DNA of 34,424 nucleotides from Candidatus Jorgensenbacteria bacterium (lineage in GTDB: Bacteria; Patescibacteriota; Minisyncoccia; UBA6257; GWB1-50-10): positions 1 through 34,424 of the forward strand of contig JACRFG010000034.1 of assembly GCA_016234345.1 (NCBI GenBank). Direction: 5' to 3'. The notes beneath the pieces are model-generated. The model did not search any database. It was not told the DNA's origin and was given only the letters and a program-made list of their open reading frames with translations. This document shows positions 6,732-28,770 of this stretch, piece after piece. How positions within the stretch are numbered: the stretch's first letter is position 1; each line of letters starts with the position of its first letter. A program made the position numbers and the translations under genes.

Positions 6732-7361
6732 TTAACGATGGGGGCGATGTTCAGGTAACGCATTGGCTTCACGACGTTTCGGAAAAATGTGGCGCCGCAA
6801 ACCAAGAAGCAATAACGAGGAAGTAGAAGCAATGGTGCCGGCGGCAATAAAAAGCGAATTGAAACCAAACCGATCAACAACGTAACCGCCAAGAGCGGCC
6901 GCAATAGCAGTTGCTAATCCAACCGAAAAAACACTCTGAAGACTCCACTCGAAACTCACGCGCCATTTATCAACGTGGCGCGTAAAAATAGCGTACCAAC
7001 TTGGCACCGCCCAAGCCATACAAACACCATAAAAAGCCTGAAGAACATAAAGATGCCACGGCTCGCTCACAAATAGATAACCGAAGGGCAGAAGACCACC
7101 CAATAAATACCCGAAGAAAAGAGCCCAGAAATCATCAAACTCACCATCGGTTTTATCCAAAAATCGCGCAACAGGCAACTGAACCAAAGATTTAACAATC
7201 CAAAAGACCGAGGTGGCAAAACCAGCCACGCTCGCGCTACCGTTATGAATCTGACCGGTAATGAATATAGCAAAAATAGGCGCAAATGAACCGAATGCCG
7301 AGTTTACGAAAAAATCGGTCATGACCAAAACTTTTACAACTTTATTGATGTGTTTAAACAT
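6732..7361 (-). CDS. half-size MFS-type membrane transporter (about 6 TM)
   Basis: 209 aa, hydrophobic; motif-A-like ARFLDKTDG and GGYVVDRFG. Confidence 0.75.
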   Translation of the reverse strand: MFKHINKVVKVLVMTDFFVNSAFGSFAPIFAIFITGQIHNGSASVAGFATSVFWIVKSLVQLPVARFLDKTDGEFDDFWALFFGYLLGGLLPFGYLFVSEPWHLYVLQAFYGVCMAWAVPSWYAIFTRHVDKWRVSFEWSLQSVFSVGLATAIAAALGGYVVDRFGFNSLFIAAGTIASTSSLLLLGLRRHIFPKRREANALPEHRPHR

Positions 7362-13706: not shown

Positions 13707-13778
13707 TACCCCCACGAGGAATTGAACCTCGATCTCAGGCTTCGGAGGCCTGCGCTCTATCCGTTGAGCTATGAGGGC
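13707..13778 (-). tRNA. tRNA-Arg(CCG), CCA not encoded
   Basis: GCCCTCATAGCTCAACGGATAGAGCG-CAGGC-CTCCGAA-GCCTG-AGATC-GAGGTTCAATTCCTC-GTGGGGGTA cloverleaf. Confidence 0.95.
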
Positions 13779-24880: not shown

Positions 24881-25696
24881 TCAATACATACGATGGAGGT
24901 CGCTGGGACCGAAAAGATATTGAACCGCGTGAGGATGGCTATCTTTGAGATTGCCTGCCTCAACATAAAAAGATCCATAATCTTTGGTACCACCGGTGTG
25001 TAAGAGGTCGCCACTTGGAGTCCGCTGCACAAATCGAACAACAAGCTTACGCTCAATACGGTAATCCCTATCGTTCGCATCAGCCGTAAAAAATACCTCA
25101 CCAGGTCCAACCACGTAAACGTCGGATGCGCCATCGATATCAACGTGAGCTTCGTAATTAGTTGCATTCGCAAACTGCTCACCGGTAATCGAACGAATCG
25201 GAAGTGTCGGAAACTTTATTTCCTTTGGCGCGTACAACACGGTTGCTGGATACGGACTCGCAGTACCCCAGTTTTGCCAATACTCAACGCGATTATCTAT
25301 ATAGACAATCTCGTTCTTGTAGAGCGGCCATTTCTCGATGAACTCTTGACCTGGCCCAGGATTACCTTGAACCCACAACACTTTTGCAGCCATTCCGATA
25401 AAATTCTTGTGGCAACTGTCGGAATATATCCGACGAACAATAGAGAGGGGCACTCTTTGAAAACCGGTGCTTACATAACCAAACGCTTCCTGACCGGGGT
25501 TTAGCCAACCCACGATTTTTCCCTCAACCACCACGTCTTCGTAAAAAGGCGTGTGGCTTTCGAGAACCACTCTGGTCTTCGGACCAATACCGAAAATCTG
25601 AGTCGGACCGGAAATAGTTACCTTGACGCCAAATTCGATTTGCGCTGACGCCATAAGAGGTATAAATAGAAAACTTAACAATATTAAGTGTTTCAT
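24881..25696 (-). CDS. hypothetical secreted protein
   Basis: Signal peptide MKHLILLSFLFIPLMASA|Q; SD AAAGGAG; beta-rich composition. Confidence 0.75.
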   Translation of the reverse strand: MKHLILLSFLFIPLMASAQIEFGVKVTISGPTQIFGIGPKTRVVLESHTPFYEDVVVEGKIVGWLNPGQEAFGYVSTGFQRVPLSIVRRIYSDSCHKNFIGMAAKVLWVQGNPGPGQEFIEKWPLYKNEIVYIDNRVEYWQNWGTASPYPATVLYAPKEIKFPTLPIRSITGEQFANATNYEAHVDIDGASDVYVVGPGEVFFTADANDRDYRIERKLVVRFVQRTPSGDLLHTGGTKDYGSFYVEAGNLKDSHPHAVQYLFGPSDLHRMY

Positions 25697-25827: not shown

Positions 25828-27507
25828 ATGCTCAAGGCTTCAAAAGACCTCGAAGAGCAATTATTAAAACAGCGACGGCAAGCCGAAGAAAATGACGCTA
25901 AACGCAGAGCCGATCGTTTAGGACTCGCTTACATCGATCTTATTTCGGTTAAGGTACCCACGGAAATAAAAGCTATGCGGCTTGTTCCTGAAGAAGAAGC
26001 AAAAAGGGCACTGCTTGTCCCTCTTCAGGTACTCCGTAAAAAACTTATTGTTGCCGCATTCGACCCCGATATACCTGAGGCTAAAAAAGCTATTGAAAAA
26101 CTTAGGAAAATATACGAAACCGAGGTTGCTGTTGTTTCCATGACAAGCCTTAAACACGCGTGGTCATATTACCACTATGTTATTAAAGAAGAAGGTGAAA
26201 TTAGCGGCAAAATAGAAATAGACGAAACAAAACTTCAGAGCCTCCAAGCGACCATCAAAAATCTGGAGCAACTCAAAGAAACCATCAGATCATTCAAGAG
26301 TCCGCTCGTGTCGCAAACTCTGGAAATTATAATTGCCGGAGCTTTATCGCTTAAGGCGTCTGATATCCATCTTGAACCCAACGACGAACGCGGCGCAATC
26401 AGATTACGCATTGATGGGCTCTTGCATGCCGCTTACGAAGAGTTTACTCCAGCAACTTATCATTCAGTCGTCACGCGCATAAAACTCCTCTCGAATTTGA
26501 AATTGAATATAACCGACCAACCGCAGGACGGCAGATTCACCATCGGCCTCAAGGATCGGGATATAGAAATAAGAACTTCGGTTATACCATCGGAATACGG
26601 CGAAACAGTTGTGCTCAGAATTCTCGATCCTCTGGCACTTAAGGTTAATTTGGAGGAACTCGGCTGGCGACCGGACGATTTAGCTATCGTAAAGGCTGAA
26701 ATTGCCAAACCAAACGGCTTGATACTCAATACCGGACCAACTGGATCTGGAAAAACAACAACCCTCTATGCTTTCTTAAAATACGTGTTCAGACCGGAAA
26801 TTAAAGTGATCACCGTAGAAGACCCAATAGAGTATCATCTGGACGGCATTTCACAAACCCAAGTCGACCCTGGCGCCGGCTACACTTTTGCATCAGGCTT
26901 ACGTTCAATTCTAAGACAAGACCCTAACGTCATACTCGTCGGCGAAATAAGGGATAAGGAAACGGCCGAAATTGCTATGAACGCGGCCTTAACCGGACAT
27001 ATCGTATTTTCCACACTACACACAAACGATGCGGTCGGAGCAGTACCAAGATTAATCGATCTCGGCGCCAAACCGCAGATATTAGGACCGGCTCTCGCCT
27101 TAGTTATAGCTCAACGCCTGATCAGAATACTCTGTCCACAATGTAAAACGACAAAACCCAACGATTCTAAATTCAAAACAAAAGCCGAGGAATTTCTGAA
27201 AAATCTCCCGTCTCGAGTCGACCGAACGCTTTATAAGCAATTATCTATCTACGAACCGAAAGGATGTGATCAATGTGGAAGTTTAGGTTACCGCGGGAGA
27301 ATTTCGATATTCGAACTTTTCGTGGTAAATGAAAATATAGAACAAGCAATCTATGCCAATCCTACCGAATTAACCTTAACCGACTTGGCAAAAAAGCAGG
27401 GCATGACTACAATGCAGGAAGACGGAATTTTGAAAATGTTCATGGGGATTACAAGCCAAGCCGAAGTCGAACGGCTAACCGGACCAATTAACTGGCTTAA
27501 GGACTAA
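25828..27507 (+). CDS. pilB: type IV pilus / T2SS assembly ATPase (PilB/GspE)
   Basis: ASDIHLEP, RLRIDG, PQDGR, GPTGSGKTTTL, TVEDPIEY, LRQDPNVILVGEIRD, TGH..STLHTN, CPQC/CDQC. Confidence 0.9.
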   Translation: MLKASKDLEEQLLKQRRQAEENDAKRRADRLGLAYIDLISVKVPTEIKAMRLVPEEEAKRALLVPLQVLRKKLIVAAFDPDIPEAKKAIEKLRKIYETEVAVVSMTSLKHAWSYYHYVIKEEGEISGKIEIDETKLQSLQATIKNLEQLKETIRSFKSPLVSQTLEIIIAGALSLKASDIHLEPNDERGAIRLRIDGLLHAAYEEFTPATYHSVVTRIKLLSNLKLNITDQPQDGRFTIGLKDRDIEIRTSVIPSEYGETVVLRILDPLALKVNLEELGWRPDDLAIVKAEIAKPNGLILNTGPTGSGKTTTLYAFLKYVFRPEIKVITVEDPIEYHLDGISQTQVDPGAGYTFASGLRSILRQDPNVILVGEIRDKETAEIAMNAALTGHIVFSTLHTNDAVGAVPRLIDLGAKPQILGPALALVIAQRLIRILCPQCKTTKPNDSKFKTKAEEFLKNLPSRVDRTLYKQLSIYEPKGCDQCGSLGYRGRISIFELFVVNENIEQAIYANPTELTLTDLAKKQGMTTMQEDGILKMFMGITSQAEVERLTGPINWLKD

Positions 27508-27525
27508 AAAATGCATTTTTAATAA

Positions 27526-27704
27526 TAAAAAGCACCCCACCCTAAGATCTGTGGGCAATTGCCTTACGGCATGTTTCGAAAACTTTTCTGAAATGAATTT
27601 CAGAAAAGGTAGGATATTCCCGAGGAGTTCTCCAGCGTAAAGCCAGGGAGTCCTGAGACGTGAGGATGATATCCATATGCCCACAGATCTTAGTTTAGGA
27701 TGCT
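27526..27704 (-). ncRNA. structured ~180-nt non-coding RNA (6S RNA candidate or novel class)
   Basis: 5' and 3' ends pair (8 bp with G-U plus a perfect 16 bp); internal hairpins include a GNRA loop; dedicated promoter; 3' U-tract. Confidence 0.75.
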
Positions 27705-27710
27705 GTATAA

Positions 27711-27739
27711 AGTCTAGCATAAATGTAATAATTTGTCAA
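27711..27739 (-). promoter_or_regulatory. strong sigma70 promoter driving the ncRNA
   Basis: TTGACA-17-TAGACT with TG extension; predicted TSS about 27704. Confidence 0.8.
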
Positions 27740-27771
27740 TCATCAACGTCACGCATTAAAAATACCTAACA

Positions 27772-28770
27772 ATGCAAGAAATAACCAACTTAAATCCGGA
27801 AGATCAAACAGTTGATCTTGCTCTACGCCCCAAAACCTGGGATGAGTACGTCGGTCAGGACAAGGTAAAATCTAACCTCCGTCTAATTATTGATGCCGCC
27901 AAACAACGAAGTGAGGCGTGCGACCATTTACTCTTCTATGGTCAAGCTGGCTTAGGCAAAACCACCTTAGCTTATCTCATTGGCAAAGAAATGGGCGTAA
28001 ACATTAGGCCGACCACCGGACCTACACTAGAACGGGCCGGTGATGTTGCCGCGCTTCTATCAAACCTGGAACCTTATGAAATACTATTTATTGACGAAGC
28101 TCACCGCCTAAACAAACTTGTTGAAGAAATTCTATACCCAGCCATGGAAACGCGCCGCCTACATCTGATTGTCGGAAAGGGCCCTTCAGCTAGAACTTTT
28201 TCCATTGACCTGCCACCATTTACCATTGTCGCCGCAACCACCAAAGTTAATCTTCTCTCCGGTCCTCTTCGCTCCAGATTTGGCGCCACATTTAGACTTG
28301 ATTACTATCAACATTCGGATATAGAAAAAATAATCAAAAGATCAGCTAGCATGCTTAATGTAAGTATATCCTCCGAAGCGGTAGCGACGTTAGCTAAGGC
28401 TGCCCGGTTTACACCACGAGTAGCCAATCGCCTTCTCAAACGCACGCGTGACTACGCCCAAGTAAACAATCTTAAACAAATCGACGAGACGACAATAAAT
28501 CAAACACTCGAACTTCTTGATGTTGATACGCTGGGCCTAGAAAACGCGGACCGCCAACTTCTTACTACCATAATTAAAAAATTCAACGGTGGACCGGTGG
28601 GCTTAAAAGCCTTGGCCGCAGCATTGAATGACGAAGTTGGAACAATAGAAGACGTATACGAACCATTTTTGATGAAATTGGGCTTTATTCATCGCACGCC
28701 AACCGGCCGAATCGCTACCGCTTTAGCCTACGAACACTTAAATCTCCCCAATCGCGCAACTCTAGTTTAA
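27772..28770 (+). CDS. ruvB: Holliday junction branch migration helicase RuvB
   Basis: LRPKTWDEYVGQ, GLGKTTLA, LFIDEAHRL, PLRSRFG, TPRVANRLLKR, GGPVGL, YEPFL. Confidence 0.97.
   Translation: MQEITNLNPEDQTVDLALRPKTWDEYVGQDKVKSNLRLIIDAAKQRSEACDHLLFYGQAGLGKTTLAYLIGKEMGVNIRPTTGPTLERAGDVAALLSNLEPYEILFIDEAHRLNKLVEEILYPAMETRRLHLIVGKGPSARTFSIDLPPFTIVAATTKVNLLSGPLRSRFGATFRLDYYQHSDIEKIIKRSASMLNVSISSEAVATLAKAARFTPRVANRLLKRTRDYAQVNNLKQIDETTINQTLELLDVDTLGLENADRQLLTTIIKKFNGGPVGLKALAAALNDEVGTIEDVYEPFLMKLGFIHRTPTGRIATALAYEHLNLPNRATLV

Follow-up and report, generated by a model that had tools for sequence, protein, structure and literature searches.

The spacer between a pilB-type ATPase gene and ruvB in a Candidatus Jorgensenbacteria genome holds a strongly folding element of about 180 nt, which raises the question of whether it is an RNA gene and, if so, to which family it belongs and how it might act. 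The DNA analysed, here called the window, is the whole stretch of 34,424 nt from position 1 of contig JACRFG010000034.1 (assembly GCA_016234345.1); the source genome, estimated to be 92% complete, is assembled into 91 contigs with 912,756 bases in total. A first-pass annotation, made from the letters of the window, had proposed an independently promoted, multi-helix RNA on the minus strand, either a divergent 6S RNA or an undescribed class of noncoding RNA. Judged from its sequence, the element is a single-copy gene for a structured noncoding RNA of about 180 nt, with a sigma-70-type promoter that includes an extended −10 and, at its end, a closing stem leading into a run of U. Its predicted fold is a three- or four-way junction of the helices P1, P2, an optional P3 and P4. 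Its detected homologues indicate conservation across one class of small-genome bacteria of the Candidate Phyla Radiation (CPR)/Patescibacteria type, and model searches place it outside every Rfam 15 family. We consider it very probable that this is a real, independently transcribed, new structured RNA family. For the best explanation as a whole, a new RNA gene acting as a protein-bound structural RNA, we estimate a probability of about 0.45; the protein-bound mechanism taken by itself is put forward a little more tentatively.

Upstream of the element, on the minus strand, the hexamers TTGACA and TAGACT are separated by a 17-nt spacer ending in TGC, with TG ahead of the second hexamer. The consensus scan rated this promoter at 10 of 12 matches; the first-pass annotation had read the same arrangement. 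Between 27200 and 28000 the scan returned three promoter-like sites, compared with 1.2 ± 1.1 in shuffles. Homologues keep the promoter as well: a −35 hexamer with no more than one mismatch, spaced 16–18 nt from TAnnnT, was found upstream of 54 of the 75 examined, against 0/75 for an opposite-strand control at the other end. The extended form TGnTAnnnT occurred at the correct spacing in 43/75 and is conserved in the family alignment. At the opposite end, where the annotation had the RNA finish in a run of U, a run of at least four T residues was present near the 3′ end of 56/75 homologues. The terminator scan called no simple terminator there, since some 120 nt lie between the two strands of the closing stem.

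Folding of 27526-27704 on the minus strand gave a minimum free energy (MFE) of −79.9 kcal/mol, far below that of shuffled sequences (−43.9 ± 4.3 kcal/mol; z = −8.42), and none of 200 shuffles was as stable. The plus strand of the same interval also folds well, with slightly weaker values (MFE = −71.0 kcal/mol, z = −7.2), so the fold alone is insufficient for a strand call. In the window fold, the outer pairing joins AGCAUCCUA with UGGGGUGCU and includes the G-U wobbles described in the first-pass annotation. A perfect 16-bp helix between 27678-27693 and 27542-27557 was recovered both in the fold and as inverted repeat I1. The long arm P2 likewise appears in the MFE fold with the limits and closing pairs first proposed. 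Its base is formed by the stems P2a (GGAUAU/AUAUCC) and P2b; next comes an internal loop of asymmetric shape, then a GGA/UCC stem, a 4-bp stem and a capping hairpin. Two smaller hairpins hold for the window and only in part for the homologues. The 11-bp hairpin P3, found here as inverted repeat I2, is optional and is absent from six related RNAs (L222, L225, L226, L234, L235, L241). The tetraloop hairpin at the P4 site exists as drawn, but its GNRA loop is not conserved; most homologues have a hairpin at this place, and its loop and length vary.

The source genome contains one full-length copy of the element. A DNA search of 60 relatives detected about a dozen homologues with 66–79% identity, all within the same family. 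Covariance model R1, built from 14 family sequences, had matches in 90 of the 96 genomes searched in the family, which represent 41 of its 43 genera; in the order sample, it matched 100 of 151 genomes. The broader model R2 matched 70 of 151 sampled class genomes; in a phylum-wide sample of 151 genomes, it matched four of the seven in-class genomes and none of the 144 outside the class. The order, class and phylum samples held about 150 genomes each, and searches over more than 40 genomes ran with stricter filters, so that every absence reported here is to be read as "not found" rather than "absent". One locus was found per genome, with the exception of G214, where an additional, partial match of lower score occurs. 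In other genomes, a further match frequently reported represents the reverse strand at the same locus and scores far lower: the source element scored 160.2 bits (R1) and 136.2 bits (R2) on the minus strand, versus 40.5 and 39.6 bits on the plus strand.

The genomic position is equally constant. PilB flanks the RNA at 13/13 family, 26/27 order and 28/28 class loci, and RuvB does so at 13/13, 27/27 and 25/28 loci, respectively. In the window, Pfam matches place TsaE and PolA genes after RuvB. The pilB and ruvB genes are both on the plus strand and the RNA is on the minus strand, so it runs against both. A riboswitch or cis-regulatory leader was considered and rejected, as the next gene on the path of the RNA is pilB, which lies on the opposite strand and is convergent. 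Being single-copy, the element is not a miniature inverted-repeat transposable element (MITE). The dispersed copies that the first-pass annotation had associated with a MITE were not found; a mobile repeat was rejected on the single full-length copy here, the one locus in each of 90 family genomes and the fixed synteny.

Compensatory changes among relatives, for which the earlier annotation had proposed to look, are abundant. In the RNAalifold consensus for the family alignment of 14 sequences, P1, P3 and the apex of P2 are predicted, and 23 of the 42 pairs show such changes. Across 48 order-wide sequences, 94.2% of cells are standard pairs compared with 71.8% after shuffling, and 35 of the 42 pairs have changed on both sides. 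The covariation score was 0.582, versus 0.188 for shuffles and at most 0.147 when partners were slid by 1–3 columns; the observed pairing and covariation values were reached by 0/500 shuffles. Divided by helix, changes on both sides affect 22 of 24 pairs in P1 (94.2% of cells paired), 5 of 10 in P2 (95.8% paired) and 8/8 in P3. The eight basal P2 pairs were 86.4% paired compared with 76.4% in shuffles, with covariation of 0.513 versus 0.328. All these figures overstate the case somewhat, because the alignments were fitted to the model and lean to its structure and because related sequences inflate the shuffle control, which counts against taking them at face value.

At sequence level, the minus strand is fixed by the one-strand conservation of the promoter and by an excess of G-U cells over A-C cells (204 versus 37) in the alignment of homologues, which upholds the earlier use of wobble pairs to orient the RNA. 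No conserved coding frame was detected: every frame was interrupted by stops in at least 28 of 35 sequences, and the lengths between anchors, taken modulo 3, were spread 13/9/13.

The conserved anatomy is concentrated in two places. P1, which closes the structure over about 25 bp, has an outer half that varies freely and an inner half that carries GAUCUGUGGGC/GCCCACAGAUC in the source order and CUGUAGGC/GCCUACAG in other orders. Pairs of the P1 core are unchanged in 40–47 of the 48 sequences, and rare compensatory flips within it (CAGUGGG/CCCACUG, CUGGGGG/CCCCCAG, CUGCGGG/CCCGCAG and CUAUGGG/CCCAUAG) identify it as a real helix. After a gap of 0–4 nt, P2 begins; in its asymmetric internal loop, the 5′ strand contributes 4–12 nt and the 3′ strand about 1 nt. 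The GGA/UCC pairs that follow, G-C, G-C and A-U, are unchanged in 48, 48 and 41 of the 48 sequences, respectively. Above them, a bulge of 3 nt precedes a 4-bp stem that covaries freely, and the arm ends in the capped hairpin with a loop usually of the UUCG/UNCG type. The approximate class-wide consensus of this module reads GGA-N5-UGGYUYCGRCUG-N5-YUCCUCGG. Sequence-specific recognition is proposed because GGA/UCC and the P1 core are both conserved beyond the needs of pairing.

Some lineages elaborate on this plan. An extra hairpin of about 25–40 nt stands between P1 and P2 in RNAs of several other orders (L243, L248, L249, L251, L256, L264, L265, L269), and the capping hairpin of P2 is also enlarged in some RNAs of other orders of the class. 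The coordinates of the features are collected in Table 1.

Table 1. Positions of the RNA, its parts and its neighbours in the window, with related loci in other sequences
Feature	Position	Strand	Remarks
−35 hexamer TTGACA of the RNA promoter	27734..27739	−	plus-strand complement TTGTCA, facing ruvB
Extended −10	27711..27719	−	TG 27719-27718, C, TAGACT 27716-27711
RNA	27526..27704	−	about 175-179 nt; both ends inferred from promoter and U run
P1, 5′ strand	27678..27704	−	outer 27696-27704 variable and covarying; inner 27678-27693 with nearly invariant GAUCUGUGGGC
P1, 3′ strand	27531..27557	−	GCCCACAGAUC and variable outer portion
P2 long arm	27612..27674	−	closed by GGAUAU/AUAUCC
P2 apical module, the most conserved	27623..27654	−	from the alignments; loop UUUAC in the window
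P3 hairpin	27583..27608	−	11 bp; inverted repeat I2, 12-nt arms, 100% complementary
P4 small hairpin	27560..27571	−	UGCC-GUAA-GGCA in the window fold; left out of the covariance models
U run 3′ of the closing stem	27526..27530	−	likely intrinsic termination site
pilB-type ATPase gene (T2SSE and MshEN, Pfam)	25828..27507	+	convergent with the RNA; conserved context, not shown to be a functional part
ruvB gene (Pfam)	27772..28770	+	divergent from the RNA; conserved context, not shown to be a functional part
tRNA gene	13707-13778	−	68 bits; no other Rfam hit in the window reaches the gathering score
271-aa open reading frame upstream of pilB	24881-25696	−	no Pfam match
Further 16S loci without anti-Shine-Dalgarno CCUCC	L294-L297, L334, L379
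Unrelated hairpins	L117 2500-2637; L123 739-879; L134 5100-5221; L174 4081-4207; L164 2668-2808		from the pattern scan

Comparison with known families supports the second of the two initial proposals, an undescribed class. The Rfam 15 covariance search returned no match to the element in the window, and 20 homologous loci gave 0 matches at E ≤ 0.01. No description of the RNA was found in the literature, supplementary files and subscription journals being outside the scope of that search. RNase P RNA, transfer-messenger RNA and 49 tRNAs were located elsewhere in the source genome.

Of its two readings, the first-pass annotation had named first a divergent 6S RNA, which would bind the RNA polymerase holoenzyme, and the outline does invite that comparison. 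6S RNA (SsrS, RF00013) measures about 150–190 nt and is a single-copy RNA in a conserved position, with an end-pairing closing stem and its own promoter; the present RNA, at about 180 nt, has paired ends and its own promoter too. Moreover, RF00013 found no 6S RNA at E ≤ 10 over the whole source genome and none in five relatives, and a nhmmer profile of 13 CPR 6S sequences found none in the source genome or its order, which leaves a gap that a 6S-like RNA could fill. A loose 6S motif search in the source genome returned noise only. Against this, RF00013 (threshold 46.4 bits) matched nothing in the element at the gathering score, nor at E ≤ 10 over 27400-27850. The architectures also differ: 6S RNA is a rod with a large two-sided bubble, whereas this RNA is a branched junction that has no two-sided bubble and leaves only 0–4 nt unpaired where the 5′ strand passes from P1 to P2. 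Finally, 7 of 151 class genomes have a 6S match, and five of these seven (G248, G291, G334, G284 and G261) carry the RNA at a separate locus. Since orthologues of the element occur alongside 6S in other genomes, the element cannot be the 6S gene. The 6S candidate was accordingly rejected, and we rate its chances as very slight.

The 6S matches themselves have a distribution of their own. That of G248 reached 52.1 bits, exceeding the cut-off, and the 6S RNA of G284 shows a GGGAGCC...CCCACCUGGA signature; the synteny of the G284 6S locus is not conserved in the source genome. In the phylum sample, 22 of 151 genomes, other classes included, had 6S matches, seven of them over the cut-off. Short 6S RNAs of about 143–197 nt with the signature GGGAGYC...CCCACCUGG were observed in other classes of the phylum (L274-L293), with few in this class.

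Signal recognition particle (SRP) RNA, in its 4.5S and large forms, resembles the element in being a small single-copy RNA of housekeeping type with a long terminal helix. RF00169 and RF01854 gave no match in the region, the source genome or five near-complete relatives, in line with the earlier remark that the element bears no SRP hallmark. The helix-8-like, GNRA-capped module that we take to be characteristic of SRP RNA would thus not be part of this RNA, a comparison made through the model match only. The missing partner proteins Ffh and FtsY reinforce the exclusion. PF02978 (the Ffh M domain) was found in 0/41 family genomes and PF00448 (the SRP54-type GTPase) in 0/5 genomes, 0/151 class genomes and 1/201 phylum genomes. 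Order tallies for PF00448, which include weak P-loop matches, amount to 33 at E ≤ 0.001 and six over the cut-off, with a match of true Ffh/FtsY strength in 1 of 151 genomes (G228). A tblastn search with Ffh and FtsY of G228 against the source genome gave a best E value of 0.028. SRP RNA was therefore rejected, for want of both a model match and its protein partners.

In G228, Ffh and FtsY are adjacent and score 211 and 193 bits (L098, G228:C16:2958-6533), which reflects either a retained SRP or a mis-binned contig. Absence of two SRP subunits in many CPR bacteria is described in an earlier report (PMC8080830). The extent of the loss across our family-to-phylum samples is striking, though the loss itself has already been published.

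Y RNA and YrlA, the partners of Ro60 (Rsr), were a further candidate on account of an end-formed long stem, a conserved helix as a possible protein site and an internal structured module. It was rejected: no match to TROVE/Ro60 (PF05731) was found in the source genome at its 92% completeness, no Rfam Y-RNA model matched, and, as a difference in structure, no tRNA-like module was seen in this RNA. A looser kinship of type links the RNA to raiA, OLE, ROOL, GOLLD and HEARO, the large orphan structured RNAs of bacteria. With these it shares intergenic conservation, covarying multi-helix folds, restriction to a lineage and a function unknown at first description. It differs in having no Rfam match, in being smaller than most of them, in its confinement to one CPR-like class and in its fixed pilB/ruvB neighbourhood.

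In the explanation we favour, the RNA would act in trans as a stable, protein-bound structural RNA. One recognition surface would be the inner P1 helix, GAUCUGUGGGC/GCCCACAGAUC, and the other the apical module of P2, GGA...UGGYUYCGRCUG...UCCUCGG; the variable outer P1, P3 and P4 would supply the scaffold and shield both termini. Recognition of a stable RNA by one or more proteins fits because the element combines two sequence-conserved surfaces with a single copy, near-universal presence and a strong promoter.

Several points weigh against this explanation, in addition to the caution on the covariation figures given above. The partner protein is postulated, and the transcript, its ends and its abundance are predictions from DNA sequence. 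R2 gave no match in 81 of 151 class genomes, which may be misses. The fixed pilB/ruvB position throughout the class could indicate a local role in cis and not one in trans. Invariant "pairs" such as GGA/UCC may be unpaired in the working state, because invariance provides no covariation. One feature is contrary to the minus-strand assignment: a C-A mismatch in the P1 core at 27680/27555 (alignment A1, column 23 and its partner) recurs in about half of the family. The window itself has U-A there; the mismatch, GACCUG... versus ...CAGAUC, would be G-U on the other strand.

CPR/Patescibacteria make up a very large and mostly uncultured share of bacterial diversity and have stripped-down genomes. 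A single-copy RNA gene kept in the same place throughout a class of them very likely serves a role basic to these bacteria. Because none of the standard housekeeping RNAs matches, this well-supported new family joins the short list of widespread orphan RNAs of bacteria, and it offers a concrete handle for experiments on enrichment cultures and metatranscriptomes.

Among the other explanations, a local regulator deserves the most attention, although we regard it as unlikely. By cis-antisense action or promoter interference, the RNA would uncouple or throttle the expression of pilB and of ruvB-tsaE-polA. Its full complementarity to the pilB-ruvB spacer of any plus-strand read-through fits this, as do the flanking by PilB and RuvB counted above and the lack of a simple terminator after pilB on the plus strand in the terminator scan. 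The −35 is moreover shared back to back with a possible ruvB promoter whose TTGTCA lies 33 nt before the ruvB start codon. Of the words found immediately before start codons in this genome, TATAAT-like ones are the most enriched; this points to many mRNAs with a short leader or none and also speaks for the local reading. An antisense RNA, however, needs complementarity only, and the branched fold with minus-strand-specific compensation and G-U pairs would be left unexplained. Homologues also differ in how far the RNA promoter lies from the start of ruvB, and housekeeping RNAs often sit in a conserved gene order that says nothing of their function. Somewhat less likely still is a base-pairing small RNA, in which the pyrimidine stretch YUCCUCGG would pair with AAGGAG, the purine-rich ribosome-binding site of some mRNAs. 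Throughout the class UCCUC hardly varies, and a subset of open reading frames (ORFs) does have AAGGAG 6–9 nt before ATG. Yet the consensus fold pairs UCCU with an equally invariant GGA, and the complementarity spans 5 nt only. A ribozyme or a protein-independent RNA, for instance one that self-assembles in the manner of other large orphan bacterial RNAs, would account for the branched conserved fold and for the invariant nucleotides at the junction and in P2, and it agrees with the fact that no protein partner is known; with no match to an Rfam ribozyme family and no sign of a cleavage site, we judge it improbable.

Readings in which this RNA gene does not exist as such are the least credible of all. 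They comprise a DNA-level inverted repeat, serving as a protein-binding or recombination site, and a MITE, and with them we group a divergent SRP RNA. The perfect 16-bp inverted repeat is what speaks for the DNA-level readings, and the failure of RF00169 and RF01854 to find any SRP RNA is what speaks for the last. A DNA-level repeat does not explain the preponderance of G-U over A-C cells, the UNCG-type loops, or a promoter and T run confined to one strand; a MITE is at odds with one copy per genome in fixed synteny, and an SRP RNA with the missing partner proteins.

A different function is suggested by the P2 sequence itself. By eye, and after the fact, the 3′ half of P2, CGGCUGG-N4-CUCCUC, resembles the end of 16S ribosomal RNA (rRNA), where helix 45 is followed by the anti-Shine-Dalgarno (anti-SD) tail: in both, a short capped hairpin is followed a few nt later by CUCCU. 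The two differ in that the loop of the RNA is of UNCG type and that of these 16S rRNAs of GGAA type, and in that the CUCCU of the RNA is internally paired. On this basis, a ribosome-associated RNA might replace the lost 16S 3′ tail, either as a preformed SD/anti-SD-like helix beside a helix-45-like hairpin or by providing CUCCU in trans. In the former case, the invariant GGA/UCCUC helix and the capped hairpin beside it would fill the pocket around h26 where the 30S subunit holds the SD helix. In the latter, the RNA would supply CUCCU to the minority of AAGGAG mRNAs. Either way, it would amount to a working part of small-subunit rRNA that has become detached. Both forms seem to us a long shot, marginally less credible than a ribozyme, and the occurrence of the RNA in a class where many 16S rRNAs have lost the anti-SD tail is a weak lead.

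The 16S rRNA of the source genome (contig C84, around 6938-6951 on the minus strand) has no CCUCC after helix 45, nor do those of six other carriers, four from the same family (G001, G036, G028, G026) and two from other families (G241, G350). Outside the class, the tail GGAUCACCUCCUUUCU is kept in 74 of 78 genomes, the other four being point variants, and the RNA was found in 0/144 out-of-class genomes; the in-class genome G264, with no RNA match, keeps the tail. This comparison took in 80 of 87 matches beyond the source genome, leaving out G429, G398, G425, G390, G438, G385 and G439. Anti-SD status within the class covers ten genomes, the 16S matches of G252 and G243 being partial and without the 3′ end. 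Seven of the ten have the RNA and no tail and represent three families only; G248 has both, G264 the tail only and G259 neither. Counted by family, the association is no stronger than 3 families to 1 for genomes with the RNA and 1 to 1 for those without. Published work reports that the anti-SD motif is lost in a subgroup of Parcubacteria and that h26, which contacts the SD helix, is conserved with an unknown role (PMC9297842). Judged by this published pattern, the class that carries the RNA is probably Parcubacteria/Paceibacteria. SD-like AAGGAG also persists before some genes. The RNA of G248 agrees with the tail of its own 16S rRNA at 18 of 22 positions, the sole standout. Local alignment of 75 RNAs with the canonical in-class tail was no better than chance: the median score was 13, shuffles averaged 12.8, and p ≤ 0.05 was reached by 7 of the 75. 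That G248 has RNA and tail together and G259 has neither also speaks against replacement, as does the retention by these 16S rRNAs of their own helix 45. A true link to tail loss would bear on translation initiation in these bacteria, a question left open in PMC9297842.

Shine-Dalgarno-like sites in the source genome have a defined position. Among AGGAG occurrences between −30 and −5 of its 561 ORFs, 18 of 22 fall at −14 to −11. AAGGAG precedes ATG by 6–9 nt in a minority of ORFs of this genome; examples in the window are those with starts at 1950 (+), 21282 (+), 25696 (−) and 10786 (−). The third of these belongs to the 271-aa ORF upstream of pilB, whose N terminus is hydrophobic and resembles a signal peptide and whose start codon follows a clean AAGGAG.

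A pattern scan across contigs matched at least 120 stretches, almost all by chance and in unrelated phyla, and the pattern proved too unspecific. Of its loci, 11 were scored with R1, namely nine with matches on both strands together with L132 and L147; four gave weak scores of 21–42 bits (L174, L134, L117 and L164). The scan also turned up long hairpins in distant taxa in which AUCUGUGGG and CCCACAGAU, spaced by about 120 nt, form part of the stem; inside the stem, they show no apparent relation to the RNA. Two of these loci, L117 and L123, are contigs of one Companilactobacillus metagenome-assembled genome and carry near-identical copies, which suggests a repeat element there.

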